A DNA stretch of 64,000 nt. Source: a plasmid. This document shows positions 12,498 to 53,633 of this stretch, one piece after another. Below the pieces are notes generated by a model that searched no databases, was not told the DNA's origin, and saw only the letters and a program-made list of their open reading frames with translations. The DNA is taken from sequence record NZ_CP093377.1. One strand, given 5' to 3'. Position 1 is the stretch's first letter. Each line of letters begins with the position of its first letter. The translations under genes and the position numbers were made by a program.

Positions 12498-13319
12498 ATG
12501 GTCAGTTTCGCAAGCCGCTATCGTATGCCTTCCTCGATCCGTAAAGACCGTCCGCTGACGAATGAGGAATTACAGCTCATCGTTCCGAGCGCGTTCTCAT
12601 CGGATAAACACGATTCACGCTCTGAACGTTATACATATATCCCGACCATAAACATTCTTGACCGTTTACGTGATGAAGGGTTTCAGCCGTATTATGCAAC
12701 GCAGTCACGCACACGTGACCAGGATAAACGCGAATTTACAAAACATATGCTTCGCCTGCGTCGTCATGACCAGATTAACGGGAAAGAAGTACCGGAAATT
12801 ATTCTGCTGAATAGCCATGATGGTTCAAGCAGCTATAAAATGATCCCCGGTATGTTCCGTCAGGTTTGCAGTAATGGTCTGGTTGCATGGAAGGATTTTG
12901 GTGAAATCCGCGTACCCCACAAAGGGGATATTGTCGGGCAGGTTATTGAAGGCGCTTACACGGTGCTGAAAACATTTGACGCGGTTGATGAAAATATTGA
13001 CCTCATGAAAAGCATTCAGCTCACTTTGCCTGAGCAGCGCCTTTTTGGTGCGACCGCACTGGAACTTAAGTACGATGGAAAACCAGCGCCGATTACGCCG
13101 GAGCAAATTATTAACCCCCGCCGGGTACTCGACAGAGGCCAGGATTTATGGACCACGTTTAACGTGGTACAGGAAAATGTGATCCGTGGGGGGATTCGTG
13201 GCAGAACGCAAAAAGGGAAGGTGACCAGAACGCGGGAAGTCACCGGAATTGATGGTGACATCAAATTAAATCAGGTGCTCTGGAAAATGGCGGAGGAGTT
13301 TGCAAAACTTAAGGCCTGA
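12498..13319 (+). CDS. DUF932-like plasmid/phage-related protein, 273 aa
   Basis: Size and position (leading region next to oriT) are typical of DUF932 proteins. RBS CAGGAGTAAATAAAA precedes the ATG. Confidence 0.6.
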   Translation: MVSFASRYRMPSSIRKDRPLTNEELQLIVPSAFSSDKHDSRSERYTYIPTINILDRLRDEGFQPYYATQSRTRDQDKREFTKHMLRLRRHDQINGKEVPEIILLNSHDGSSSYKMIPGMFRQVCSNGLVAWKDFGEIRVPHKGDIVGQVIEGAYTVLKTFDAVDENIDLMKSIQLTLPEQRLFGATALELKYDGKPAPITPEQIINPRRVLDRGQDLWTTFNVVQENVIRGGIRGRTQKGKVTRTREVTGIDGDIKLNQVLWKMAEEFAKLKA

Positions 13320-13347
13320 AAATTAAGCCGCTCAACAGAGCGGCTTT

Positions 13348-13887
13348 TTACTGTCCGCTATGTAACGAGGCCGTTTCCGCAATTTGAATCGCCTTCTCCT
13401 TTCCCGCAGCTGGCGCCAGACGTTCAGAAAGCAACTTTTTTCTGGCGAGCAATACACGATATATATTTTTGATATCCTGAGCATACGCCTTGCGCTGCGC
13501 AATGAGCTTTTTGCTCGGCCCCGTATTATACATCCCTACGCTGTCCCAGTTTTTTCCGTATGACCTGAAGTTGTGCGCCAGTACCCATGCACCCGTATAA
13601 ACGCAGATGCATGGATCATTCAACAGGCGCTCTCGGGTAATATTGAAGTTTTTAAGTTTACCGTAATGAGAACTGTTCACCTGCATCCCGCAGACATCTT
13701 CTGTTCCATTTCTGTTAGATCCATTTATCGCACCCGGCTTAAGTCTGCTCTCTTTAATTGAAATTGACATAAGCAGCAGCGGATCAATTTGATAATCTTT
13801 CCCGGCCTGATCAAAGCACATCTGGGGAGCTGCGCCAGCAGACATGGATAGGGTCAGCAATGCCGCAGGGAGTATCGATATTTTCAT
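13348..13887 (-). CDS. Lytic transglycosylase (gene X / orf169-like, SLT domain) with signal peptide
   Basis: Signal peptide, then an ES catalytic-Glu motif (SISIKESRL) and NGTEDVCGMQVNS. Adjacent to oriT as in F. Confidence 0.8.
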   Translation of the reverse strand: MKISILPAALLTLSMSAGAAPQMCFDQAGKDYQIDPLLLMSISIKESRLKPGAINGSNRNGTEDVCGMQVNSSHYGKLKNFNITRERLLNDPCICVYTGAWVLAHNFRSYGKNWDSVGMYNTGPSKKLIAQRKAYAQDIKNIYRVLLARKKLLSERLAPAAGKEKAIQIAETASLHSGQ

Positions 13888-14039
13888 TGTTTGGCCTTTT
13901 AACGAAATACACGGGCTCTGGAGAGTCGCCTTAAAAAATACCCCGGCGGATCGTCGTAATCAAGTTAATTCACTACAAACGCGCGTGAGCGCTCTCCTGA
14001 AGGGATTTAACACCCGTCCGAAATAAACATGTCAGAGCA

Positions 14040-14130
14040 GTAGACGGTATTAACACGCCGCTCTTTACTAACCCTTTAAAACATCACACCCCACGCAAGA
14101 CTTCGTCTTGCAGATTTTTTCTTTAAATTC
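14040..14130 (-). other. oriT nic region (F-like), nick on the minus strand
   Basis: The minus strand reads TTGCGTGGGGTGT|GATG, which matches the F nic consensus TTTGCGTGGGGTGT|GGTG. An adjacent inverted repeat gcaagac/gtcttgc lies at 14095-14112. Confidence 0.6.
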
Positions 14131-14189
14131 AGTGGCATGATGTGTGTTTTATTTCGTAATTTTTGAGTATGCGCGCTTAAGGTGTGTGG

Positions 14190-14465
14190 ATTGACACACA
14201 TTGCAGTGCTTAATCAGGCACTGCAATGTGTGCTAATACAGCACTCTGAAGTGTGGGGATTGTGTGTATTCAATTAATAGAGTAACTTAAAAGTAGATGG
14301 TGCCTGAACCACACACATCATAGTGCCTAATGCACACACATCATAGTGCCTGATTAGCACACATCTTTAGGGATGGATTAGATATAAAATCAGTTGGTTA
14401 CCATAACACAGCACCACTGACAGTTGTTAAAGCTCGCCATTGCAGTGCCGCATCAGGCACTGCAT
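14190..14465. promoter_or_regulatory. TraM operator (sbm-like) palindromes and traM promoter region
   Basis: Repeated perfect palindromes cattgcagtgc..gcactgcaatg and gcactatgatgtgtg units lie upstream of traM. Confidence 0.55.
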
Positions 14466-14485
14466 TAGAATATCGAGAAATTATT

Positions 14486-14872
14486 ATGCCAAGAAAGAAC
14501 ATTTACTTTAAAGACAAAATTGACCGCGAAATACATGATATTCTTGAAATAGAACTACAGAAAGGGGCCACCACCTCTGAGATGAACTACTCATCAATAG
14601 TCAACGAATTAGTACGCCTTGGGCTAATGGTTTACAAATCGAAAGAAGAAGGAAGCTCATTTGACCTGGATGGCTTCAGGCGCGACCTTATAAAGAAAGT
14701 CTCCGGGTCGCGAGAAGGTATTATGATTCTGACTGCCCTTGTTTCTGACATCTTCGTTACACTCAAAGGTCCCGACTCTGGCGTGAAACTGGAAGAGCTC
14801 ATAAACACCAATATCAGTGCAATTAACGATGCGGAAGATAAAGCCGAAAAAGACCACTTCCTGGCAGGGTAA
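14486..14872 (+). CDS. traM: Relaxosome accessory protein TraM
   Basis: 128 aa, immediately after oriT. The helical C-terminus and overall pattern resemble F TraM. Confidence 0.85.
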   Translation: MPRKNIYFKDKIDREIHDILEIELQKGATTSEMNYSSIVNELVRLGLMVYKSKEEGSSFDLDGFRRDLIKKVSGSREGIMILTALVSDIFVTLKGPDSGVKLEELINTNISAINDAEDKAEKDHFLAG

Positions 14873-14910
14873 ACTAGCTTCTTTGGCCGGAACACTCCGG
14901 CCAGAATCGA

Positions 14911-15597
14911 TCACTGGGACGGCTTTTCATCCCACGGAAGGTCACTTTTCTCCACCTCTCTTATTTTTTCCTTCAGAAACACCTCGAACTCCATACAAAG
15001 AACTTTAAGCGCCTGCGCATCCTCGTTCTGGTCAAGTAACCTTTCCGTAAAATAACCCAGCGTATTCATCAGACGGGTAAGCATTTCGTCATTAAGACTA
15101 CGGTTATGAACCTTCGCCATCGCCCTGATTTCATCCGCGAGATTCTCAGGAATACGCATGCTGTAGCCAGTTGTTTTCCCTGGAAGTAAAATTCTTTCAC
15201 CCTCACGCCACACCCACAACTGCTCCTGTTTGGGCGGGACTTTAACATCTTCCGCAACATCAACGGATTCACCATCAAGTAATTTCCCCAGCCACTCCTC
15301 AAATTTCACCGCCAGTGCAATGAGACGCTCACCCTCCGCAGTTTTAATGACAGGCCTGCCTGGCTGGTAATTCAGCGACAACAAAAGCCTGGCAATAATT
15401 TCCTCATTCACGCTCCTGTTGCCAGCTCTGGCACATATTCTCAGCTCCATAAGCAGATTATCCGGAGCGCGCAATCGCCATTCCACAGCTTCACCCGGCT
15501 GGAACTTACGCGGACGGCCGCGACCATCCCACATTTTCTCTTTAACTTTCATAGCTATAGATCTCGGAGGCCATTTCCGTACTTTCTCGTCAACCAA
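14911..15597 (-). CDS. Tandem Arc/Mnt-type ribbon-helix-helix DNA-binding protein, encoded antisense to the tra operon in the traJ/traY slot
   Basis: Two internal repeats each carry an Arc-like motif (AGNRSVNEEIIARLLLSL and VHNRSLNDEMLTRLMNTL; compare Arc ENGRSVNSEIYQRV). No +strand ORF of 60 aa or more lies between traM and traA. TTG/ATG start. Confidence 0.55.
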   Translation of the reverse strand: MVDEKVRKWPPRSIAMKVKEKMWDGRGRPRKFQPGEAVEWRLRAPDNLLMELRICARAGNRSVNEEIIARLLLSLNYQPGRPVIKTAEGERLIALAVKFEEWLGKLLDGESVDVAEDVKVPPKQEQLWVWREGERILLPGKTTGYSMRIPENLADEIRAMAKVHNRSLNDEMLTRLMNTLGYFTERLLDQNEDAQALKVLCMEFEVFLKEKIREVEKSDLPWDEKPSQ

Positions 15598-15748
15598 GCC
15601 TACTCACTTACCCATTCAGATAAATCTGAATAATTCTAAAAAATGTGACATGGGTCACAGTTTTTTTTTTTTGAGGTTATGGGACAATTGCGCCCGCGTA
15701 AACAAGCACTTACGCGAATCACTTTTGTTTACCTCGGAGAAAACAAAC

Positions 15749-16102
15749 ATGTTAACCAAAGGCAGTGCCCTTAACGTCGGAAAGGGAGGGGCGGTAGCGT
15801 ATTTATTCCGTAAAGCACGCGAAAATCGCCAGACTAAATTTTACTTAAAGTCAGCAGGCGCTTTTTTAATTTCACTTATGGTCACTCACCCGGCATTCGC
15901 ATCTGGTGCTGACCTTCTTTCCTCACAGAACACCACGGTTAATTCCACCTTCGGTTCCGGCTCTTCATTGATTAAATGGTTTTACATCGCCGAAATCATC
16001 ATGGGCCTGTTTATTTACATCAAGGCCCGTTCACCGCTGGTATTCGTCGGTATCGTAATGGCAATCATCTTTACCCGTGTAGGCTTCGGCATAGCGAGTT
16101 AA
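15749..16102 (+). CDS. traA: Propilin TraA
   Basis: C-terminal TTVNSTFGSGSSLIKWFYIAEIIMGLFIYI matches F pilin TTVKATFGKDSSVVKWVVLAEVLVGAVMYM. Confidence 0.85.
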   Translation: MLTKGSALNVGKGGAVAYLFRKARENRQTKFYLKSAGAFLISLMVTHPAFASGADLLSSQNTTVNSTFGSGSSLIKWFYIAEIIMGLFIYIKARSPLVFVGIVMAIIFTRVGFGIAS

Positions 16103-16105
16103 ACG

Positions 16106-16408
16106 ATGAGCGGGGATGAGGATAAATATAACTTCCCGGAAACAATGAACCAGCAGGACCGCTATTTAGGCTTGCCAATTGATGAATTAATTGTTACCGC
16201 ACCCCTTTTAGTTTTGGGGGTGCTTAACAATCTGTCACTCGAACTGGGTGTAATCGCGGGAATCCTCTGGTTTATCGTCAGATATCTGAAAAAAGGGCAG
16301 GGATCATACTGGTTACTTAATTTCTGTTACTGGCACCTGCCATCACTTTTGTTCAAAGTAACCTTTCGCCAGATACCTGATTCAAGTTTCCGGCACTGGA
16401 GGGCATAG
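16106..16408 (+). CDS. traL: TraL
   Basis: Starts MSGDEDKYNFPETMNQQDRYLGLPIDE, matching F TraL [29 protein letters not shown]. Confidence 0.85.
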   Translation: MSGDEDKYNFPETMNQQDRYLGLPIDELIVTAPLLVLGVLNNLSLELGVIAGILWFIVRYLKKGQGSYWLLNFCYWHLPSLLFKVTFRQIPDSSFRHWRA

Positions 16409-16414
16409 TTTTTC

Positions 16415-16996
16415 ATGAAACTGAATATTAAGGGAGAGCGCGATAAACAACTACGCTATGCGTTTATTGGTCTTTCAGCTTTAACTTTACTCATGGGCGC
16501 AGGGAATGTACTGACAGGGTCACTGGCATGGTATTTCGCCACTACCCAGAAAACCATCACCACGCCATTAACGTTTAACCGCCCATTTGCATCAGATTCT
16601 AAAAGTGTCGATGCCACCGGTCTGACACAGTTCGCCGCTTCCTTTATTTACTGGCGACTCAACGTTACTCCTGAAAACATCGAACATAACCAGAAAATGA
16701 TTCTTGGATTTGTCCCTTCCGCCGAACGGGACGAACTCAGGAAAGCTCTGGATATTGAAGCTGAACGCATCAGGAAAGCGGGCATTTCCACCCAGTTCGA
16801 CACGAAAGAAATTCGAGTCATGGATGATGGCTCCGTGCAGTACAGCGGGGTTCTGAAGTCCTCCACCACTAACGGCGTAATCATCACGCCGATGAAAGAC
16901 CAGGAAAAAACCTACCGCCTGAAACTGAGTTATGAGAACGGTGTGATTAACCTCCACAGCTTCGAAGAACTCCAGCCGGTATCCACCACCAACTGA
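16415..16996 (+). CDS. traE: TraE
   Basis: 193 aa with an N-terminal TM segment; synteny and similarity to F TraE. Confidence 0.8.
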   Translation: MKLNIKGERDKQLRYAFIGLSALTLLMGAGNVLTGSLAWYFATTQKTITTPLTFNRPFASDSKSVDATGLTQFAASFIYWRLNVTPENIEHNQKMILGFVPSAERDELRKALDIEAERIRKAGISTQFDTKEIRVMDDGSVQYSGVLKSSTTNGVIITPMKDQEKTYRLKLSYENGVINLHSFEELQPVSTTN

Positions 16997-39786: not shown

Positions 39787-40098
39787 TTAACTGCCCGTCA
39801 CAAGAAAATCTACCGCACTGACGATGATATCCCTCATCTCAGGGCAGTAAATGTGAAAATCGTTTTCATCCAGTTCATGCAGATATACGGTCTGGATAAG
39901 TTGAGTCATCAGAATATACCGTTCACCGTCGATCACGATACTGGGGTTGATTTTGCTCATACCTGGCAGAGAAGGTCGCCAGCGAACAAACGGGATAATC
40001 ACCCGCGTATTGAGATCTTCAAGCTGACCAGATTGTGCAATGACAAAGTACGGATATTCTTCGTTATCTGGCCGCCGGAATATTGAGCCCTGCTTCAT
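39787..40098 (-). CDS. ccdB: CcdB-family toxin
   Basis: 103 aa with a CcdB-like pattern (RVIIPFVRW..., IDGERYILMTQ) immediately downstream of a CcdA-like gene; 4-nt overlap. Confidence 0.65.
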   Translation of the reverse strand: MKQGSIFRRPDNEEYPYFVIAQSGQLEDLNTRVIIPFVRWRPSLPGMSKINPSIVIDGERYILMTQLIQTVYLHELDENDFHIYCPEMRDIIVSAVDFLVTGS

Positions 40099-40343
40099 TT
40101 AAACACTCGCAAACCCGCACTACTGACAGGGATCGCATGTTCTTCAGTGAACCGGTTAGTGGCGGCTATAGCCTCTCTGTTTTCTTCCTTCCATCTTATC
40201 TGTCGCTTTTTGCGAACAACATCCTCCAGGGCTGTGTTCAGCGTGGCTGACAGGTTGATGTTTAACATTTTCGCTTCTTCAACCAGAGCGGCATCAAGCG
40301 AAATGTTCGTGTTTTTCTTTCTGGCTCGCATAGCAGTATTCAT
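40095..40343 (-). CDS. ccdA: CcdA-family antitoxin
   Basis: RWKEENREAIAATNRF matches CcdA RWKAENQEGMAEVARF. Start chosen at the ATG with a GAGGTG RBS. Confidence 0.65.
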   Translation of the reverse strand: MNTAMRARKKNTNISLDAALVEEAKMLNINLSATLNTALEDVVRKKRQIRWKEENREAIAATNRFTEEHAIPVSSAGLRVFK

Positions 40344-40568
40344 GCGCATCACCTCATGTACGTCCAATATGCGCATTACTATAGCGCAGGATTAGCAAAT
40401 GCCCAACTGATGGGCAGCTGTAGCAGAGCGCTTCTGTAGACGATACACAGGCACCGGTGCGTAATTGCCTGATGCCTCTCCACAAACGTTTCGCTTCCTC
40501 GCAGGACTGCGCCAGGCGCAGCCCTGCCTGCGGCGAGCGTTGCATACACAAACGTAAAGGCATTCACC

Positions 40569-41352: not shown

Positions 41353-43944
41353 ATGAGCTTCGCAGGAAAAAACCTTACCCAGGGCGGGCAGATGACCGCC
41401 TACCGCTGGCGCATGTTCATTCAGGTGAACAACTGGATAGGATTCTGGATCTTCATCCTGTTCGCCGTACTGACTACCGCCATCTTTCTCTGGCGAATCC
41501 CTCAGGAAGCCCTGGATAACGGTTCCCTGTGGTGGTTCGCCAGTATCAACAGCAGCTTTATTGACCTTATGCCGGCATCGGGAACGCCAAAAATCTACGA
41601 CGTTCACTACTGGTATGCGCCGACCGCGACGGCAATGGTGCTGAAAATGACTTTGCCACAGATTTATACCGACCCGTACATGCAGGCGATGGGCGACCAG
41701 TGTCTGCGCGAGCTGCAATGGGCGGCCGGCGCCAGCGGGCTGTTCAGTATGGTGGTGTTTATCGCCGTGACCTGGTTTATCGCGAATATCGGCCGAAAGG
41801 AGAGCGAGGACGAATATCTCTCCGGCATGCAGCTGACCGACAAGCCAGCGGAAGTGAATAAATTACTGCGCAAAAACGGTGAGATCTCTGATCTGCGCGT
41901 AGGCGACCTGCATATGGTCAGGATGGCGGAGGTACTCAATTTCCTGATGCATGGCACTATCGGGGTGGGGAAGTCGACGCTGATACGCTGGTTACTCGAC
42001 TACATCCGCAGGCGTGGTGACCGGGCCATCATCTACGACTCAGGCTGTACCTTTACCGAAACCCATTATAACCCCTCCACCGATATCATCCTTAACGCCC
42101 ACGATGAGCGATGTGCCAACTGGCAGATGTGGGGTGAGTGCGTTGACGCGGTCGATTACGACAACCTGGCCGCCAGCCTCATTCCGGTAGAAGGGGAATC
42201 CGATCCGTTCTGGGTATCCAGCTCGCGAACCATTTATGCCGATCTTGCAATTCGTATGTCAACGGACCCGGAACGGAGCATTGAGAAGTTCCTCAAAACC
42301 CTTCTGTCCCTCAGCATGAAAAATCTGCGTGACTATCTGGCCAACACGCCCTCAGCCAACCTGGTTGAGGAGAAGATCGAGAAAACGGCCATTTCCATTC
42401 GCTCGGTGGTAACCAACTACGCCAAAGCCCTTCGCTATCTGCAGGGGCTGGATGACGGAACGAAGCCGCCGTTCACCATCCGCGAGTGGATGACGCAGGA
42501 GCGCTATGACAGCAGCTGGCTGTTTATTTCAACCCAGGCACGTCACCGCAAGAGTGTACGCCCGCTTATCTCGCTGTGGGTGTCGCTGGCCACACTGATG
42601 CTGCAGAGCATGGGGGAGAACAGCGACCGCCGCGTATGGTTCATTATCGATGAAGCACCCAGCCTGCAGCGCATACCCGAGCTGGCCGAGACGCTTGCCG
42701 AGGCGCGTAAATTTGGCGGCTGTTTCGTGCTGGGCATGCAGAACATGGCGCAGCTGGTTCACGTCTACGGCCGCGAGCTGGCCAAAAGCATCTTTGACCT
42801 GATGAACACCCGTATGTACGGACGTTCGCCGAGCGCCGAGATGGCCAAAGTGGTGGAAGAGGAACTGGGCAACCAGCGTAAGCGCAAAATCCGTGAGCAG
42901 AACAGCTACGGTCTGGACCAGGTGCGTGACGGTGTGTCCCTCGGTAAGGACGAGGTGAATAACCCGATTGTCGACTACGAGCAGATCATGCGTCTGCCAA
43001 ACCTCAACTTTTATGTTCGCCTCCCGGGTGAGTATCCGGTCGTCCGTCTGAAGCTGAAATACCGCGCGCTGAAGAAACGGCAGGCAGGCCTCATTGAGCG
43101 CAATATCCGCGATGCGCTCAGTCCGGAGCTTGAGAGGGTTATTCAGGAGAACGAGCGCGCAGCGGCTGCTGCAGGTCTGACGTTCCCGACCGGTGAAGAA
43201 GTGCTGGAGAAGGGAAGCGAAATGTCAGCCGCAGCTGACGGTACGGCTCATGTTGCTTCTGCAGGTACGCCGGCATCATCGCCCGTCGAAAAAAAGACAG
43301 CAACACCAGAGACAGCGCCGAAGCCTCCTCAGGGCACAGTGCCTGAACGGAAACAGGTTGCTGTCATGGAGCCTGTTATCTCCGGTTCTGCGACAGTCGT
43401 ACCGGAAGAGGGGGGCGGAAAACACAACATGGTGACACCTCCTGTCACTGCAGAGAAAAAAGATAACGTTGTTTCTCTCCGTTCTGTTGGCGCAATGAAA
43501 AAACCGACTGAAGTACCGGGCAAATTACCGGTCTCCCCCGGAGTGACCGGTCACCCGGGTACCGCTGACTCTGTACAAACAATGCCCGATGCCCTCAAGG
43601 CCCTGCGAAACCGACATCATGTACCGGAACCACCTGTCGCCTCACCTCTGAGCATGCTGCACAGGGCACGCCAGCGGCCGGCCTCTTCGGAAAGCGATCC
43701 GCAGACAGAGGAAAACGGCGGTGAGTCCATGAACCTCGACATGAAAGTGACGGCACTGCCTGACGGCGGCCTGAGTCTGACGACGGCAGGGAAGTCAGTG
43801 ACACCGAAAACCCCGGATGAAGCCCACGGTACTCACCGGCAGCTGGCGCAGGAAGAAGAGAACATTTTACTTCACCGTCACGCGGACGACCCGGGTTACG
43901 ACGAAAACGACCATTACTATTACGACAGAGAGCCTGAATTATGA
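41353..43944 (+). CDS. traD: TraD type IV coupling protein
   Basis: Walker A GTIGVGKST and the motif LVEEKIEKTAISIR shared with F TraD; extended acidic/Pro-rich C-terminus. Confidence 0.9.
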   Translation: MSFAGKNLTQGGQMTAYRWRMFIQVNNWIGFWIFILFAVLTTAIFLWRIPQEALDNGSLWWFASINSSFIDLMPASGTPKIYDVHYWYAPTATAMVLKMTLPQIYTDPYMQAMGDQCLRELQWAAGASGLFSMVVFIAVTWFIANIGRKESEDEYLSGMQLTDKPAEVNKLLRKNGEISDLRVGDLHMVRMAEVLNFLMHGTIGVGKSTLIRWLLDYIRRRGDRAIIYDSGCTFTETHYNPSTDIILNAHDERCANWQMWGECVDAVDYDNLAASLIPVEGESDPFWVSSSRTIYADLAIRMSTDPERSIEKFLKTLLSLSMKNLRDYLANTPSANLVEEKIEKTAISIRSVVTNYAKALRYLQGLDDGTKPPFTIREWMTQERYDSSWLFISTQARHRKSVRPLISLWVSLATLMLQSMGENSDRRVWFIIDEAPSLQRIPELAETLAEARKFGGCFVLGMQNMAQLVHVYGRELAKSIFDLMNTRMYGRSPSAEMAKVVEEELGNQRKRKIREQNSYGLDQVRDGVSLGKDEVNNPIVDYEQIMRLPNLNFYVRLPGEYPVVRLKLKYRALKKRQAGLIERNIRDALSPELERVIQENERAAAAAGLTFPTGEEVLEKGSEMSAAADGTAHVASAGTPASSPVEKKTATPETAPKPPQGTVPERKQVAVMEPVISGSATVVPEEGGGKHNMVTPPVTAEKKDNVVSLRSVGAMKKPTEVPGKLPVSPGVTGHPGTADSVQTMPDALKALRNRHHVPEPPVASPLSMLHRARQRPASSESDPQTEENGGESMNLDMKVTALPDGGLSLTTAGKSVTPKTPDEAHGTHRQLAQEEENILLHRHADDPGYDENDHYYYDREPEL

Positions 43945-46900
43945 TGTCAGTCGCCCCAGTAGCGTCAGCCGGCGAGGCTGCAGGCTACTACAGCAATTCC
44001 GATAACTACTATTTTTTGGGCAGCCTGCAGAGCCTATGGATGGGAGAGGGTGCAAAAGCGCTGGGTCTGGAGGGCAACGTCCGTGGCGATGATCTGACGG
44101 CCGTGCTCGAGGGACGTCTGCCGGACGGTTCACGGCTGGGTAAAGAGGTTAACGGACAGCATGTCCACCGCCCGGGTCATGACCTGACCTTTTCCGCTCC
44201 CAAGAGCGTGTCCATTCTGGCACTCATTGGCAACGATAAAGAAATGGTGGAGGCACATAACCACGCGGTCCGCGTGGCGGCCGGCTATGTGGAGAAGCTT
44301 ATCTCGGCCCGCGACACGAAAGACGGCGTCACGTCCATCGTACATACCGGCAAGATGGTGGCAGCTGCTTACACGCATGACACTTCACGTAACCTCGATC
44401 CGCAGCTGCACACCCACCTCCTGATTGCCAACATGACGGAGTATGCGGGCAAATGGAAAGCCCTGGCCACGGACTATATCCATAACGCCGGCTTTATCGA
44501 AACCGTCATGAAGCATCAGGTCACGCTCGGGAAAATTTATCGCAGCGCGCTGCGTGAACGGGTTGAAGCGCTCGGCCATGAAGTGGAAGAAGTAGGCAAG
44601 CATGGCATGTGGGAGATCAAGGGTGTTCCGGAAGACGTCAGGGACGAATATTCCTCACGGGGCAGGGAAATACAGGGGGCCGTGGGGGCTGAAGCCACGC
44701 TGCGCAGCCGGGATGTGGCCGCCAAAGACACCCGCAGGGCGAAAGTTGACCCTTCGCGTATGCGCCTGATGGAGCGCTGGCTGGGCCAGATGAAGGAGAA
44801 GGGATTTGACCTGAAGGCGTATCAGGAGAGCGTGGTGCCGCGTGATGCAGGTCTTCGCGAGGCACCACCTCTGCCGGCGCGAGAGCATCAGCCGACCCCG
44901 GTTCCTGCCGGGCCTGAGCAGGCATCTCCGCAGACCTCCTCCAGGGCAGAGAAGAGTCCCGACACCCCTGCTCAGTCAGCAGAACGGGAGAGCCTGTCCC
45001 GTCAGCCTGTACCACAGCAGACTGACACGATGAGTCAGCCGGCACTGACCGGTCCCGAAAAGACGCCGACGGCCAGGAGTTTTCCTGCAGCGCAGCGGGA
45101 CACTGAAATACCCCGCCCGGAACTGACTGAGGCTGTCCGGCTGGCCATCTCGCAGCTCAGTGACAGTAAAACACGTTTCACTTTTGGTGAACTTATGCTG
45201 ACCACGGCGGAGCTGAGCGAACAGCTGCCGGAAATTCAGGATATTCGTGTGGCCATCGATGCGGCGCTGAAGGACGGCATGATTGTGCCGCTGGACAGTG
45301 AGAAAGGGGTCTTCACCTCCCGTATTCACCTGCTGGATGAACTCTCGATCCAGGCGCTGAGTCAGGAACATCTCAAATCCACAAAAGTCGTCAGTTTCAC
45401 CCGTCCGGCGCAGTACGCGCCGGCGGCGCTGGAAGTGGTGGAGAAAGACGCCCTGGTTCTGATGAATGCCCCGTCAGGCGTGGCGGGTATCCGTGACCTG
45501 ACCGCGCAGCTGGCCGGTATTGCCGGCGCGAACGGTCGTGACGTGCAGGTGCTGGCCAGCTCTGCCGAGCGCGCCATTTCGCTGGCGAAATCCGACGATT
45601 TACGGGAACGGATCATCAGCCGTCAGCATGTTCTGAGCGGTGATTTCCACCTGAAACCCCAGAGCACGCTGATTATCGAAGGGGCAGAGCGTCTGGGATT
45701 AAAGGAGACGCTGGTACTGCTGGGCGAAGCGCGTGCGCAGGACGCACAGCTGGTCTTTCTCGACAGTGCCGGGCGTCAGGCGAACGGTAATGCCATGTCC
45801 GTGCTGGAGTCCGCGGGGGTTGCCCGCTCCCGCCGCACTGAGCCGGCGCCCGGGCTGGAGGCCGAAGTGGTCAGTATTCCGAACAAACGCGACCGTTACG
45901 AGGCGCTGGCCAACCGGTTTGCAGAGCTGAGCGGAGGCAGTGAAAACGTCACCGCCGTTGTGGTCGGCAGGCGTGAACAGGCACAGCTGACGGGCCTGGT
46001 ACGTGAGGCGCTGCAGAACGCAGGACAGCTGGGGCGTGACGGCGTGGAGATAGAGGCCCGGCAGCCGGTCTGGCTCGACAGCAAAACGCGCCGCATGCCC
46101 GGTTCATACCGTCCCGGCATGGTACTTGAAGATCGCACGGACGCAAAAGCGCGTAAGTCGTATGTGATTGACCGGGTGCATGAGGACACGCGAGTCCTCT
46201 CGCTCATCGACGGGGACGGCGTGCTGACCCGGATGAAAATCGGGGATATCAGCGCTGACTGGCGTCTCTTCAGCCGCGAAACCCTCAGCGTGGCCACCGG
46301 CGAAAAACTGCTGGCCGTGGCGGGGGATCGTGAGCACAGCCTGAAGGCAAAAGACCGTCTTGAGGTGACCGGGATAAGTGAAAAGGGGATTGAGGTGAAA
46401 CGGGGGGAAGAGACCCTGACGCTGCCAAAAGACCAGCCGCTCTACCTGTCACATGCCTACGTGACCGCGCCGGGCGGCCGGGATAACGACACCGGCGTGG
46501 TGCTGGCCGCGCTGAACAGTCGCGACATCTCATCCCAGACCATGAACTCGCTGGCACAGAGTGGTCACCGGGCGGAAGTGTTCACCGCCGAAGTGCAGGA
46601 TCGGGCGGAAGCCCGGCTGCAGCGCATGAAGACCAGTGCCTCTCCCGTGCAGCTGGTCAGAAGTCTGAGTGGCCACGATGACGTCAGCCAGGCGGTTGAC
46701 TCGCTGCATGACAGCGTCCGGACGGACGCCGGGCTGGCCGTCTGGCGTGCCATCAATGACCAGCGCACTGTGGTGTTCAGCGAACTTAAGCTTGCGACGG
46801 AGGCGCATAAATATCATCCCGACCTTGAAGCCATCGGGAATGAAATCGGGGCGATGGTCAAAAACGGCGAGTTACTCTCCGTGTCAGCAGGCGGAGAGCC

Positions 46901-49355
46901 GGTGCTGGTTTCCCGGTCCACATGGGAGATGGAGAAAGCCATTCTGCGTGTGGTGGAGGAAGGGAAAGGTACGCAGCAGCCGTTGCTGGAACAGGTACCG
47001 GAGGCCGTGCTGAACGGACTCACCGATGGCCAGAAAAAGGCGACCACCCTGGTGCTGGGCACCACGGATCAGTTTATCGGGATTCAGGGCTATGCCGGCG
47101 TGGGGAAAACCACTCAGCTGAAGGCGGTGATATCTGCACTGGAGACCATACCGGCGGACGTTCGTCCGGTGATGACGGGTCTTGCCCCGACGCACCAGGC
47201 GGTGAAAGAAATGAGCGACGTCGGTGTCCGGGCGCAGACCATCAAATCCTTTATCGTTGAACATGACCAGGCGACGGCCGCAGGCGGTAAGCCCGACTAT
47301 AAAGGACAGGTGTTTCTTATCGATGAGTCCTCAATGGCAGGCAACCAGGATACGGCGGCCCTGTTCCAGGCCATTGCCAGCGGCGGCGGTCGCGCGGTCT
47401 CGATGGGGGATATCGACCAGTTTGAATCGGTCGACGTGGGCGCGCCGTTTAAGCTGATGCAGGAGCGCAGTCCGATGGATGTGGCCATCATGAAGCAAAT
47501 CGTCCGCCAGAAAGACCTGCAGCTGCGCGGTGCCGTTCACGACATCATTGATAACCGGATCGATGCGGCCCTGCAGCGCATTGAAACCCAGCCGGCTGAC
47601 CGTGTGGCGCGTAGCGCTTCAGCCGCGCTCCCTGAGAGTGCCATTCAGGAAACGGAGACGCCCGTTAACGACATCGTGGCTGACTGGACGGACCGGACGC
47701 CGGAGGCGCGGTCCCGTACCCTCATTATCACCCAGCTGAACGCTGACCGTCGTGCGGTAAATGCCGGCATTCATGCTGTGCTGGCTGCCCGGGGAGAGCT
47801 GGGGGAGAAGGCCATAACGGTGCCGGTGCTCGATAAAATCACCCACACCCGTCATGAGTTTAACAAAACCGATGCCTGGGAAGCCGGGATGGTGGTTAAA
47901 CGCGGCGATCGCTACCAGGACGTGCTGGCCGTTGACCGCAACGGCAGTACGGTCACGGTACGCGATGAGGAGGGGAAGATTGGACTGTATTCCCCGAAGC
48001 AACTCATCACCGGCGACGTGCAGCTGTTTCGCCGCAGCGAGAGGGAAGTCCGCGCCGGCGATCTGCTGAAGTTCACGGCGACAGACAAGGAGCAGGGACA
48101 GATGGCCAGCCAGCGCTATACGGTCGAGTCGGTCAGCGAAACGGGCAATATTCGTCTGAAGGGGGAAAACGGCCGCATCACCATCAATCCTCAGGCGGTC
48201 AGGGCGCAGCAGCATATTGACTACGGCTGGGCCGTCACCGGGTACGGTGCTCAGGGAGCCAGCAGCGATTATGTCATTGCGCTTGAGGGCACGGAAGGCG
48301 GGCGTAAGGCACTTGCCTCCCGTCGCGCCTTCTACATCTCGGCCTCGCGCGTGAAAGAGCACGTCCAGATTTATACCGACGGGAAGGCGGACTGGGTTAA
48401 GGCGGTAAAAACGCCGGAGCGGGATATCAAAACGGCGCACGATGCGCTGGCGCCAGAAACGCAGCGTAAACAGGCGAAAGCCATCTGGGCAATGGGACAG
48501 CCGGTGAATAAAACGGCCATTGGCCGCGCCTGGGTGCGCCATCAGGGTATGCAGAACGCGTCACTGACGGCAAAAATCATCCCGGCCACCCGGCGCTTTC
48601 CCGAACCGGCGCTGGCGCTGCCGGTGTATGACAACAACGGCCGGAGTGCGGGCCTGGCCCTGGTTTCCCTGGTTGCCAGCCCGGAAGGGCGGATGACGCA
48701 GGGGGAGACCCGGATGGTCATGACAGATCGTGCCCGTGGTGCAGTACTGCAGCGGAGTCAGTCCGGAAACACGATTGTGGTCAGTGACCTGGCGGCCGCG
48801 CTCGATGCCGTACGACATCACCCGAAGGACGGCGTGGTCTGGCAGACCGGCGATGAGCCACCATCAGCACATCTGCTGAAAGTCAGCGGAGGTATCGTTA
48901 CGGAGGCCGCATCAGAACACAAACTGATCCGTGACCAGGAGGAAACCACACGACAGACGGAAAAAGACATGCTTAACAAAGCCGCTAAAGCGGAAAAAGA
49001 AAAGAGTGAGACTCAGGAGCGTATTGTTGTGCCGGTGGAGGACGCGGTGCGTATTACGCCCGGGATGCTCGAGGTTGACGACCGAAATGAGCCAACGATT
49101 CCTGACGGAAAAGTGCTCATTCAGGTTGCCAGCTCGGACAGCGTTAGCCACGATGAGATTGGCCGTCATATCAGGGCAGAAAAGGAACCATTGGCCAGCA
49201 AAGTCGCTTCGGAACGTGCGGGAGTCAGCCGCATTGTGAATGAGCTGGCCAATACCGAGCGGGATATTATCCGGCAACCCGAAAATAGCGAGCGCGGCCG
49301 CATGCCGGAGCGTGAAGAACAGACCCTCACCCGAACCATTCAGAAAGAACGTTAA
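43941..49355 (+). CDS. traI: TraI relaxase-helicase
   Basis: MMSVAPVASAG..YYSNSDNYY, HRPGHDLTFSAPKSVS and helicase motifs GYAGVGKTT match F TraI. Confidence 0.9.
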   Translation: MMSVAPVASAGEAAGYYSNSDNYYFLGSLQSLWMGEGAKALGLEGNVRGDDLTAVLEGRLPDGSRLGKEVNGQHVHRPGHDLTFSAPKSVSILALIGNDKEMVEAHNHAVRVAAGYVEKLISARDTKDGVTSIVHTGKMVAAAYTHDTSRNLDPQLHTHLLIANMTEYAGKWKALATDYIHNAGFIETVMKHQVTLGKIYRSALRERVEALGHEVEEVGKHGMWEIKGVPEDVRDEYSSRGREIQGAVGAEATLRSRDVAAKDTRRAKVDPSRMRLMERWLGQMKEKGFDLKAYQESVVPRDAGLREAPPLPAREHQPTPVPAGPEQASPQTSSRAEKSPDTPAQSAERESLSRQPVPQQTDTMSQPALTGPEKTPTARSFPAAQRDTEIPRPELTEAVRLAISQLSDSKTRFTFGELMLTTAELSEQLPEIQDIRVAIDAALKDGMIVPLDSEKGVFTSRIHLLDELSIQALSQEHLKSTKVVSFTRPAQYAPAALEVVEKDALVLMNAPSGVAGIRDLTAQLAGIAGANGRDVQVLASSAERAISLAKSDDLRERIISRQHVLSGDFHLKPQSTLIIEGAERLGLKETLVLLGEARAQDAQLVFLDSAGRQANGNAMSVLESAGVARSRRTEPAPGLEAEVVSIPNKRDRYEALANRFAELSGGSENVTAVVVGRREQAQLTGLVREALQNAGQLGRDGVEIEARQPVWLDSKTRRMPGSYRPGMVLEDRTDAKARKSYVIDRVHEDTRVLSLIDGDGVLTRMKIGDISADWRLFSRETLSVATGEKLLAVAGDREHSLKAKDRLEVTGISEKGIEVKRGEETLTLPKDQPLYLSHAYVTAPGGRDNDTGVVLAALNSRDISSQTMNSLAQSGHRAEVFTAEVQDRAEARLQRMKTSASPVQLVRSLSGHDDVSQAVDSLHDSVRTDAGLAVWRAINDQRTVVFSELKLATEAHKYHPDLEAIGNEIGAMVKNGELLSVSAGGEPVLVSRSTWEMEKAILRVVEEGKGTQQPLLEQVPEAVLNGLTDGQKKATTLVLGTTDQFIGIQGYAGVGKTTQLKAVISALETIPADVRPVMTGLAPTHQAVKEMSDVGVRAQTIKSFIVEHDQATAAGGKPDYKGQVFLIDESSMAGNQDTAALFQAIASGGGRAVSMGDIDQFESVDVGAPFKLMQERSPMDVAIMKQIVRQKDLQLRGAVHDIIDNRIDAALQRIETQPADRVARSASAALPESAIQETETPVNDIVADWTDRTPEARSRTLIITQLNADRRAVNAGIHAVLAARGELGEKAITVPVLDKITHTRHEFNKTDAWEAGMVVKRGDRYQDVLAVDRNGSTVTVRDEEGKIGLYSPKQLITGDVQLFRRSEREVRAGDLLKFTATDKEQGQMASQRYTVESVSETGNIRLKGENGRITINPQAVRAQQHIDYGWAVTGYGAQGASSDYVIALEGTEGGRKALASRRAFYISASRVKEHVQIYTDGKADWVKAVKTPERDIKTAHDALAPETQRKQAKAIWAMGQPVNKTAIGRAWVRHQGMQNASLTAKIIPATRRFPEPALALPVYDNNGRSAGLALVSLVASPEGRMTQGETRMVMTDRARGAVLQRSQSGNTIVVSDLAAALDAVRHHPKDGVVWQTGDEPPSAHLLKVSGGIVTEAASEHKLIRDQEETTRQTEKDMLNKAAKAEKEKSETQERIVVPVEDAVRITPGMLEVDDRNEPTIPDGKVLIQVASSDSVSHDEIGRHIRAEKEPLASKVASERAGVSRIVNELANTERDIIRQPENSERGRMPEREEQTLTRTIQKER

Positions 49356-49383
49356 TCTCCCTTTTAACCATGAGACTCAGACG

Positions 49384-50172
49384 ATGAAAGTACACAAATT
49401 AGCGGCATTAATAGTTACAACATACGTTAACTTTATTTCAACAGCACACGCTTCGACCACACAACCGCTGTTCAGCCACGAGCAGGAGGCGCGTATAGGC
49501 AAAATTGCGGCCGATTATCTGGTATCTCACCCGGAGATTCTGGTGATCGTCAGTCATAAGCTGCAGGAACAGCAGGAGGCACGTAAGCAGAAGATGTTTG
49601 CACTCAGCGTGATGGAGAATCAGGCGAACCTTCTGCATGACCCGGACACCCCGGCTTACGGGCCTGATAATGCAAAGGTCGCGGTGATTGAATTCTTTGA
49701 TTACCAGTGCGTGTTCTGCAGCCGCTTCGCGCCGGAGCTGGAGAAGGTCATGAAAGCGCAGCCGGACGTCCGCTACCTCTTTAAGGAGTGGCCAATATTT
49801 GGTGGTCGCTGGGAAGCCTCACTTCAGGCTGCGCAGCAGGGGCTGACGGTCTGGCAAAAGAAAGGGCCGCAGGCCTATGTCGCCTATCACAATGCCATCT
49901 ACGCGACCGGCCATAATGAAGGCAAACTGACGGCAGATGATATTCACGGGGCTGCGTTAAAAGCAGGACTGGCAACGCCGGCTCCGGGCGAGCATACCGC
50001 GTCCCTGGAGAAAAACAGCAATCTGGCGGAGGTGCTGGGGCTCACCGGAACGCCGGGAATCATCGTGATGCCCGTCACCGGCGCCACACCGGAAACCATC
50101 ACGGTTTTCCCGGAAGCCGTTACCGCTGACAGACTGCAGGCCGCTATAAGGAAGGCCTCGCGGGGACAATAG
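49384..50172 (+). CDS. DsbA-like periplasmic thiol:disulfide oxidoreductase
   Basis: Signal peptide plus CxxC thioredoxin motif (YQCVFCSRF). Confidence 0.65.
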   Translation: MKVHKLAALIVTTYVNFISTAHASTTQPLFSHEQEARIGKIAADYLVSHPEILVIVSHKLQEQQEARKQKMFALSVMENQANLLHDPDTPAYGPDNAKVAVIEFFDYQCVFCSRFAPELEKVMKAQPDVRYLFKEWPIFGGRWEASLQAAQQGLTVWQKKGPQAYVAYHNAIYATGHNEGKLTADDIHGAALKAGLATPAPGEHTASLEKNSNLAEVLGLTGTPGIIVMPVTGATPETITVFPEAVTADRLQAAIRKASRGQ

Positions 50173-52865: not shown

Positions 52866-53633
52866 TTACCAGAGCTTTTCCAGTATGAGCAGGACCAGCA
52901 GATGACCGGTATAGGCCATATAAAAGAAATGACGCGGCATAAAACGCTGACGGCCTGCCGGGCAGAGGTCCGTGCACAGGGACATTGCTATCAGGGGGAA
53001 TACCAGTGTTGGCAGTGTGGCCAGTAATAATGTCTCTGCAGGCATGCTGAGCAGATGCGTGATACCGTTTAAGCAGAGCAGTGACAGCACGGCAACAAAG
53101 GCGGCCCTGCGCTTCATTTCGGGGGCAGAGCTTCCCGTAACGGTTGCCAGGCTGACGGCCAGTATGACGCCCGACAGGCCATAACTTGCGGGCTGAAGCG
53201 GAAATATCATGAGCGCCAGAAGCAGCCCACCGACAAGGTTTCCCTTCTGGCCATACCGGTACCGCAGGGCAAGCAGCTGCGTGACGCCGGCGAACACGAA
53301 CAGGATGTTCATCGCCCACCACGGCTGGTGATCCAGGAAGGCCAGGCTGAATACCGGCTGCGTGATGACTGCCCAGATCCACAGCCGGTTTGCCCTTACC
53401 TGCAGACGTTCTGGCGAACGCTGCACGTTCATCGCCCATATAAGCGTGAACAGGGGGAAGGCCATCCGGCCAAGCGCATACATCACCGGCCAGGCTGGCG
53501 TCAGAAACAGCGTATTGATGTGATCGATGAACATGGCCAGAAGCGCCACGAGCTTGATCATATCCAGTGCTGCCGGGCTGGGTTGGCCGGTTTTCTGCAG
53601 GTTGTGAAATGCATCGGGTACGAACAGATTCAT
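52866..53633 (-). CDS. traX: TraX-like pilin acetyltransferase (inverted and displaced from the tra operon)
   Basis: Polytopic membrane protein with motifs IKLVALLAMFIDHIN and GRMAFPLF, like F TraX. SD GGGGAG precedes the ATG. Confidence 0.7.
   Translation of the reverse strand: MNLFVPDAFHNLQKTGQPSPAALDMIKLVALLAMFIDHINTLFLTPAWPVMYALGRMAFPLFTLIWAMNVQRSPERLQVRANRLWIWAVITQPVFSLAFLDHQPWWAMNILFVFAGVTQLLALRYRYGQKGNLVGGLLLALMIFPLQPASYGLSGVILAVSLATVTGSSAPEMKRRAAFVAVLSLLCLNGITHLLSMPAETLLLATLPTLVFPLIAMSLCTDLCPAGRQRFMPRHFFYMAYTGHLLVLLILEKLW

Follow-up and report, generated by a model that had tools for sequence, protein, structure and literature searches.

What takes the place of TraJ and TraY in an F-type transfer region that encodes neither? 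The question is raised by a 64,000-nt stretch of a plasmid (sequence record NZ_CP093377.1, hereafter the window), in which the slot of traJ and traY, between traM and traA, is occupied by a gene on the opposite strand. The original prediction for this locus, made without database searches, described the product of that gene as two repeats of about 110 amino acids (aa), each with an Arc/Mnt-type ribbon-helix-helix (RHH) signature, and the gene as divergent from traA; both the repeats and the orientation held up. The gene is almost certainly entFR of the Group D MOBF12 F-like plasmids. Its product, EntFR, is an analog of TraY in architecture which stems from an independent duplication of an Arc-type unit and lies outside the TraY family by sequence, and the DNA between entFR and traA has the predicted features of a divergent control region.

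EntFR from the window is 88% identical over 100% of its length to WP_014063866.1, the regulator that Fernandez-Lopez et al. (2016, PMC5102898) list in Table S2 for the Group D plasmid pENTAS01. In that study, the Group D MOBF12 F-like plasmids of Enterobacter and Pantoea (prototype pENT01; also pENTAS01, pECL_A, and pENTE01) were described as TraJ- and FinO-negative, the conserved protein in the traJ locus was named EntFR and predicted to be a double RHH protein, and EntFR was proposed as a functional homolog of TraY, with a TraJ-like role not excluded. The layout that lacks traJ and traY was published at that time and is a rediscovery here. The same applies to the differently wired regulatory circuit that the original prediction had suggested for this locus, which was already in print together with the idea of a TraY substitute. 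The window agrees with the published plasmids in the protein family, the traM-traA locus, the double RHH, and the TraJ- and FinO-negative background, and differs from them in nothing essential. The text of that paper is without the divergent promoter region, the cAMP receptor protein (CRP)-type site, the T tract, the palindromic box, and the basic RGRPRK arm; the control-region layout formed by the CRP-type site, T tract, box, and -10-like elements, together with the arm, is newly described here as a set of predicted features. A literature search returned no experimental follow-up on EntFR after the 2016 paper. The residual interest lies in the function of EntFR and in a model of the control region.

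entFR is a genuine gene. The mechanical minus-strand open reading frame (ORF) spans positions 14911-15597 and has 228 aa when counted from a TTG at 15597, which was the length originally stated. That ORF exists, but the conserved start is the ATG at 15552, from which PGAP annotates the relatives, and gives a protein of 213 aa; the TTG was rejected because the stretch upstream of the ATG (15553-15597) is not conserved among relatives and carries indels in addition to substitutions. The ratio of nonsynonymous to synonymous substitution rates (dN/dS) is 0.06-0.15 against five relatives, which points to strong purifying selection. The two halves of the protein align to one another with a local alignment score of 138, as compared to 27.8 ± 4.9 in shuffles (z about 22), and the Pfam Arc family (PF03869) matches EntFR in two stretches (E 9e-14, 51.5 bits, cut-off 20.4) and matches its distant homologs as well. 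These data bear directly on the reading that the minus-strand ORF is a chance or decaying frame and that the region is the scar of a traJ and traY deletion. Only the absence of the two genes speaks for decay. Set against it are the dN/dS values, the length and start kept among relatives, the 245 PLSDB plasmids with a match over at least 80% of EntFR, where all but one of the listed records annotate a gene, and a search for traJ and traY remnants in which none were found. The scar reading was rejected, as it is already refuted by the conservation data, and we assign it practically no probability.

The arrangement recurs in a large set of plasmids. The 2.5-kb region is about 94% identical in more than 80 PLSDB plasmids, mostly from Enterobacter; the members of this group that were examined are IncFIB/IncFII and MPF_F, with MOBF in five of nine. 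Matches to EntFR occur in 249 plasmids, with identity down to 39%. Among the related plasmids whose context was examined (seven genera, with EntFR identities as low as about 40%), the order lytic transglycosylase (SLT, minus strand), traM (plus), Arc-family gene (minus), traA (plus) is constant in Enterobacter, Citrobacter, Kosakonia, Escherichia, Pantoea, Erwinia, and Ewingella. The window has the same order, followed by traL onwards, and traA is the first gene of the tra operon in the Group D lineage. Two records with short flanks fit this picture: in Phytobacter, entFR is divergent from traA, and a Pectobacteriaceae bacterium has traM, entFR, and traA. A Klebsiella record is the exception, with traM, entFR, traL, and an IS630 transposase and no annotated traA. 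The comparison with related plasmids that had been suggested for this locus places traM (plus), entFR (minus), and traA (plus) lineage-wide. The protein family itself is very narrow: among 1.84 billion cluster representatives, a full HMMER scan found 29 matches to EntFR, of which about five approach full length (about 200 aa or more), each with a single match over most of the profile.

The classical regulatory genes were searched for throughout the window. tblastn with F TraJ, F TraY, and R100 FinO against all 64 kb returned no match better than E 0.29 (best values of 0.33 for F TraJ and 0.88 for R100 FinO), and F TraM, used as a positive control, recovered traM. Rfam detected neither FinP nor a traJ leader over positions 13300-16500. 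The gap between traM and traA is real and measures 876 bp, one less than originally counted. As had been claimed, the mechanical ORF list has no plus-strand ORF of at least 60 aa wholly inside the gap; two others reach into it, one at 14817-15008 (63 aa, with its start within traM) and one at 15419-16102 (the traA frame, which is open upstream of its ATG). Neither of these ORFs, nor any of the three plus-strand frames of the gap with stops masked, matched a Pfam family. A frameshifted traJ or traY on the plus strand, which the original prediction had named as an outcome that would overturn it, was rejected on the empty tblastn and Pfam results. A second TraY-like gene elsewhere in the window was likewise rejected; the weak tblastn matches sit in a lipoprotein ORF and a RepA-like ORF. 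traJ, traY, and finO are therefore absent from the window rather than frameshifted, and the earlier statement that there is no TraJ-like activator is correct. The layout is lineage-wide, so to call traJ and traY "missing" is misleading: the Group D tra system never had TraJ, TraY, FinO, or FinP, and their absence is the ancestral layout of the lineage and no loss event in this plasmid.

We then turn to the protein. The AlphaFold model of EntFR contains two strand-helix-helix units, each followed by a long helix. The best Foldseek matches of this model in the PDB are chains of F TraY in entries 9f0x and 9f0y (E 6e-3, probability 1.0, TM-score normalized to the target of 0.63-0.71), followed by the permuted single-chain Arc and the tandem-RHH protein AvtR. 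By sequence, the nearest solved proteins are AmrZ (3qoq, to RHH domain 2) and Arc. The relaxosome structures of 2025 show that a monomer of F TraY holds the whole RHH dimer fold in one chain (PMC12117103), and the two Arc-type repeats of EntFR are predicted by the model to fold into a single pseudo-dimer in the same manner. The likeness to TraY that had been suggested for this protein extends to the fold and stops there. EntFR has no match to Pfam TraY (PF05509) at E up to 1, compared to E 3e-38 for F TraY as a control, and a profile comparison of EntFR with F TraY by hhalign gave a probability of 0.2%. It is this combination of a TraY-like fold with null sequence tests that identifies EntFR as an analog from an independent duplication.

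Ahead of the first RHH domain, EntFR has a basic N-terminal arm. Its RGRPRK motif is invariant in 34 close homologs and across clades down to 40% identity, and the whole segment MKVKEK...RGRPRK is unchanged from the Enterobacter to the Erwinia homologs at 40% identity. AT-hook minor-groove motifs have RGRP as their core, and the Pfam AT_hook model gave a weak match to the Pantoea homolog only (E 0.045, 14 bits versus a cut-off of 17.4). The motif might contact the AT-rich core of the GAWWWWTC box described below or the T/A tract.

A length of 196 bp separates entFR from traA in the window and likewise in the five aligned closer relatives, and a CRP-type site lies in the middle of this region. 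The motif TGTGA-N6-TCACA has one exact occurrence in the 64 kb, namely this site, as compared to 0.08 expected. The 22-mer around it fits the CRP consensus, which we take to be AAATGTGA-N6-TCACATTT, at 15 of 16 specified positions by hand count. The half-sites are kept, with a variable 6-nt spacer, in plasmids found independently by protein similarity, including those with an EntFR that is only about 40% identical. Exceptions are a symmetric variant CGTGA...TCACG in Phytobacter, TCACG in Kosakonia, and TGTGT in four near-identical plasmids. The latter four are pENT-22e and three RHBSTW plasmids (L048-L051); their segments, with the TGTGT left half-site at position ~1845, are identical, and all four are classed as non-mobilizable by MOB-suite. 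When one genome from each of 185,579 species was scanned for the motif followed by T10 or longer, 33 matches were returned, 23 of them between entFR and traA homologs; the motif with its T run is thus nearly diagnostic of entFR-traA loci.

The T tract beside the site is 12 nt long in most loci, with a range of 10-14, and has identical flanks in plasmids of different species. Rapid phase variation of this tract was considered and rejected because all eight near-identical plasmids, which differ by 0-13 substitutions over 2.5 kb, have T12, and the range of 10-14 appears only between more distant plasmids. Separately, the tracts at the two ends of a single Siccibacter contig (L014 and L024) are T12 and T13, where heterogeneity or a sequencing error is possible.

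Downstream of the tract, a -10-like hexamer for traA takes the forms GACAAT, GACACT, TACACT, TACAAT, and TAAAAT, and starts 31.5 bp from the center of the CRP site in most loci. On the entFR side, a palindromic GAWWWWTC box is present in 29 of the 29 loci examined, at 29-30 bp from the CRP-site center or, in the Pantoea clade, at 40-41 bp. A TA(G/C)GCT hexamer stands at a fixed 20.5 bp from the center of the box in 22 of these loci and at 21.5 bp in L004. Taking this hexamer as the -10 element of entFR, the box overlaps the -35 region. CRP activates from class I positions at -61.5 and -72.5 and from a class II position at -41.5. In the 23 loci with a correctly located hexamer (L004 is the sole Erwinia-type locus among them), the CRP site lies at -61.5 to -62.5 from the predicted entFR start in the Enterobacter-type clade and L004, and at -72.5 to -73.5 in the Pantoea clade because 11-12 bp, about one helical turn, are inserted. 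At the predicted 5' end of the traA leader, an inverted repeat has GCGT...ACGC arms kept in all clades except L003 (GCAT...ACTC); an mRNA 5' hairpin and a protein-binding site are both conceivable.

Our model for these features is that the 196-bp region would act as a compact divergent switch, and we give the model as a whole a slightly better than even chance. Host cAMP-CRP would bind the central near-consensus site and aid RNA polymerase at the entFR promoter from a class I position (about -61.5; in the Pantoea clade, about -72.5). CRP would also act, from about -43.5, at the promoter of traA and the tra operon, which is predicted to consist of the -10-like element with the T12 tract as spacer. 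EntFR would bind the GAWWWWTC palindrome over its own -35 region and thereby limit its own synthesis, and from about -72 relative to the traA start it would modulate the tra promoter. This effect would most likely be positive, architectural, or anti-silencing, with EntFR taking over part of the role that TraJ and TraY play at PY in F.

The positive or anti-silencing reading is made plausible by two precedents. The first is TprA, an Arc-like RHH protein that is the main activator of the transfer genes of the integrative and conjugative element (ICE) PAPI-1 and counters MvaT (PMC8565334). TprA resembles the proposed EntFR in being an Arc-type RHH protein of a conjugative element that controls pilus and transfer genes against silencing by a nucleoid protein. 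It differs in having one RHH domain in a model of 81 positions, a single repeat that presumably dimerizes, and in belonging to another element type and host. The second repeat of EntFR does hit the NCBIfam TprA model (E 0.0037), but at 17.7 bits it falls far below the cut-off of 150 bits, and therefore EntFR is no member of TprA. The second precedent is the action of CRP on the traJ promoter of the F-like plasmid pRK100, as Starcic et al. (2003) are cited in PMC7762799. Host cAMP-CRP input to tra expression is common to both cases, as a prediction in ours. In pRK100 the site is at the promoter of an activator gene, traJ, and here it lies between the pilin/tra operon and entFR, in a system without TraJ.

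Several observations weigh against the model and the fold on which it draws. The mean pLDDT (AlphaFold's per-residue confidence) of the EntFR model is 64, with about 74-87 for the RHH cores (block means), and the other four models were much worse. A strict scan for sigma-70 promoters came out empty between entFR and traA, and both promoters are therefore proposed from conservation only. The CRP site lies at -43.5 from the predicted traA start, which is 2 bp beyond the canonical class II position. The conservation of TGTGA among the loci from the genome scan is circular because the search pattern required it, and only the loci found by protein similarity count. That EntFR binds the box, and whether it raises or lowers traA expression, are purely inferred, and the direction of this effect is the weakest step. 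Lastly, TGTGAC...GTCACA with T12 also scores as a weak terminator-like hairpin of about -7 kcal/mol.

This last point leads to another reading of the central element, in which TGTGAC-N4-GTCACA and T12 form an intrinsic terminator rather than a CRP site and insulate the traA promoter from traM read-through, which would run antisense to entFR. The element is flagged as terminator-like on both strands, the hairpin is followed by 12 U, and a long T run is present in all relatives. However, the hairpin has a weak, short stem, which in Kosakonia (-5.1 kcal/mol, z -0.3) folds no better than shuffled sequence. In addition, the arms are conserved in sequence, with a constant 6 nt from TGTGA to TCAC, and lack the free covariation of a hairpin, and the flanks give the consensus fit noted above. 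We regard a terminator as very unlikely.

The position of the box is relevant to a further alternative, namely that EntFR is a repressor that keeps transfer low as a substitute for FinOP and shuts both divergent promoters while CRP activates them. The majority of RHH proteins of the Arc/Mnt type act as repressors, the box extends over the -35 region predicted for entFR, and the lineage is without FinO and FinP. On the traA side the geometry does not fit as well: the box is about 72 bp upstream of the predicted start, which is no blocking position for a single site, and no second box is found near the traA -10. We consider general repression unlikely.

A different role would place EntFR at the origin of transfer (oriT). 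According to this reading, EntFR is chiefly a functional TraY: it would bind oriT in the interval from nic to the TraM sites, bend the DNA there, and promote nicking by TraI, and any effect on transcription would be secondary. Both the original prediction and the 2016 paper lean toward this reading, which can coexist with the divergent switch. The monomeric tandem RHH, with F TraY in the relaxosome as its best structural match, and the failure to find any other TraY-like gene in the window argue for it, as does the finding in F that the relaxosome forms, and transfer is efficient, only with the IHFa and TraY (sbyA) binding sites (PMC12117103). The null Pfam TraY and hhalign results argue against it, and entFR is not cotranscribed with the tra operon.

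The oriT of the window can be examined directly for candidate EntFR sites. In the F locus (L006), what we take to be the nic sequence of F lies on the minus strand, and the nic region of the window is almost identical to it; the region is kept in every Group D relative in which its position could be determined. The repeat GCAAGAC...GTCTTGC beside nic shows a compensatory change of GAC/GTC to GAT/ATC among relatives. Closer to traM, the AGTGCC...CACAC repeats vary between relatives in number and sequence, and the palindrome just before traM is kept; by their position and by analogy with the sbm sites of F, the repeats are probably plasmid-specific TraM sites. In Kosakonia, the repeats co-vary with the palindrome directly upstream of traM. 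No conserved GAWWWWTC box lies within 420 bp of nic, and no repeat of at least 10 nt is common to oriT and the promoter region outside coding sequence; on these grounds, a copy of the EntFR operator in oriT was rejected. The stretch that matches the TraY sites of F (+61 to +90) is poorly conserved among relatives. With no box near nic and poor conservation at the TraY-site stretch, a role of EntFR as a relaxosome accessory factor is therefore possible and has no support from the sequence, and the oriT function that had been proposed for it did not gain any. We see a chiefly TraY-like function as an appreciable possibility that falls short of an even chance. The coordinates of all features are collected in Table 1.

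Table 1. Features of the oriT to traA region in the window
Feature	Position	Strand	Evidence or remark
oriT core, nic sequence GCGTGGGGTGT/GATG (14082-14096)	14082-14111	-	Match to F nic; nic between 14085/14086
Inverted repeat GCAAGACTTCGTCTTGC adjoining the nic sequence	14095-14111	-	Conserved with compensatory changes
AGTGCC...CACAC repeats	14195-14464		Three 23-bp direct copies at 14297-14365; GCAGTGC...GCACTGC palindromes at 14199-14228 and 14438-14464
traM	14486-14872	+	Relaxosome protein; Pfam Tra_M E 3.7e-11; convergent with entFR
GC-rich hairpin GGCCGGA-ACAC-TCCGGCC	14885-14902		In the 38-bp spacer of convergent traM and entFR; folding -17.5 kcal/mol (+) and -15.6 kcal/mol (-); z -4.5 and -2.9
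entFR coding sequence, 213 aa	14911-15552	-	Two Pfam Arc matches, internal repeat, dN/dS, identity to pENTAS01, conserved start
RHH domain 2, residues 127-164 (TTGYSMRIP...NRSLNDEMLTRL)	15061-15174	-	AlphaFold strand 127-135, helices 136-148 and 153-164; pLDDT about 74-87
RHH domain 1, residues 22-59 (AVEWRLRAP...NRSVNEEIIARL)	15376-15489	-	AlphaFold strand 22-30, helices 31-43 and 48-59; pLDDT about 80-85; Pfam Arc
RGRPRK, EntFR residues 11-16, AT-hook-like basic motif of the N-terminal arm	15505-15522	-	Invariance in homologs
Predicted entFR -10 hexamer TAGGCT	15597-15602	-	Predicted transcription start near 15590
Palindrome ATTCAGAT-AA-ATCTGAAT with core box GATAAATC (15619-15626)	15614-15631		Candidate EntFR operator over the predicted entFR -35 region
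CRP-type site AAATGTGAcatgggTCACAgTT	15641-15662		Core 15644-15659, center 15651.5; middle of the 196-bp region
T12 tract	15661-15672	+	Between the CRP-type site and the traA -10-like hexamer; a T tract (10-14) in every relative
Predicted traA promoter, -10 GACAAT (15683-15688), TG at 15680-15681	15680-15688	+	Conservation; no recognizable -35 hexamer; predicted transcription start near 15695
Inverted repeat CGCGTAA-N8-TTACGCG	15695-15716	+	Predicted 5' end of the traA leader
traA (propilin)	15749-16102	+	Pfam TraA and TIGR02758; followed by traL, traE, traK, traB

EntFR can be set next to the known RHH proteins. F TraY (PF05509; PDB 9f0x-9f12) is a single chain with two RHH repeats that form a pseudo-dimer, as is predicted for EntFR, and is encoded beside traA; it has no detectable sequence relationship to EntFR. 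F TraY has 131 aa, in contrast to the 213 aa of EntFR, which has an extra helix per repeat and the basic RGRPRK arm. The F traY gene leads the tra operon in the same direction as traA, whereas entFR is on the opposite strand, outside the operon, and convergent with traM. For EntFR, no oriT sites were identified in the search for its conserved box within 420 bp of nic. Arc, Mnt, and AmrZ (PF03869) share with EntFR the Arc model, which each of its repeats passes, and Arc and AmrZ are its nearest solved sequences. The candidate EntFR operator over the entFR -35 would point to autoregulation of the kind found in this family. Arc, Mnt, and AmrZ have one repeat per chain and dimerize, whereas EntFR fuses two diverged repeats of about 110 aa and is dedicated to a conjugation locus.

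A broader claim can be formulated from the divergent-switch model: that Group D replaced the whole TraJ/FinOP/TraY circuit by one CRP site driving both entFR (in class I geometry) and the tra operon (in class II-like geometry, over the poly-T spacer), with EntFR, an autoregulated, AT-hook-bearing single-chain RHH pseudo-dimer, as co-activator or anti-silencer and possibly as a relaxosome factor, and with fixed T-tract lengths of 10-14 setting basal transfer rates that differ between plasmids. This claim is speculative and, in our view, somewhat unlikely to hold in full.

The remaining features of the window concern the neighboring genes. The product of traM matches the NCBIfam TraM model with E 8e-12 and 45.5 bits, under the cut-off of 104 bits. 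The GC-rich hairpin between traM and entFR is followed by a T tract (a U tract in RNA) on neither strand. An 1804-aa ORF at 43941-49355 is presumed to be TraI by its size and position, and a close relative and four other plasmids are typed MOBF/MPF_F. An ORF at 49240-50172, which overlaps the 3' end of the presumed traI, has a DsbA/ScsC-like thioredoxin-fold product and takes the place of traX; a traX homolog (E 1e-24 to R100 TraX) is located about 3 kb further, at 52902-53579 on the opposite strand. The only other small RHH-like ORF in the window is CcdA-like by eye and stands beside a CcdB-like ORF. This pair, at 39787-40376 on the minus strand between traT and traD, was judged by inspection of the sequences only.

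Plasmids of the Group D type (IncFIB/IncFII, MOBF, MPF_F) are common in clinical and wastewater Enterobacter, and one relative is named for VIM-4. What is added here to the published arrangement is a testable model of the control region, with a shared CRP site, a candidate EntFR operator, a conserved T tract, and a basic arm. If the model is true, it would tie the transfer of these plasmids directly to the carbon status of the host, and EntFR would be a second, independently evolved single-chain RHH pseudo-dimer in F-type conjugation.

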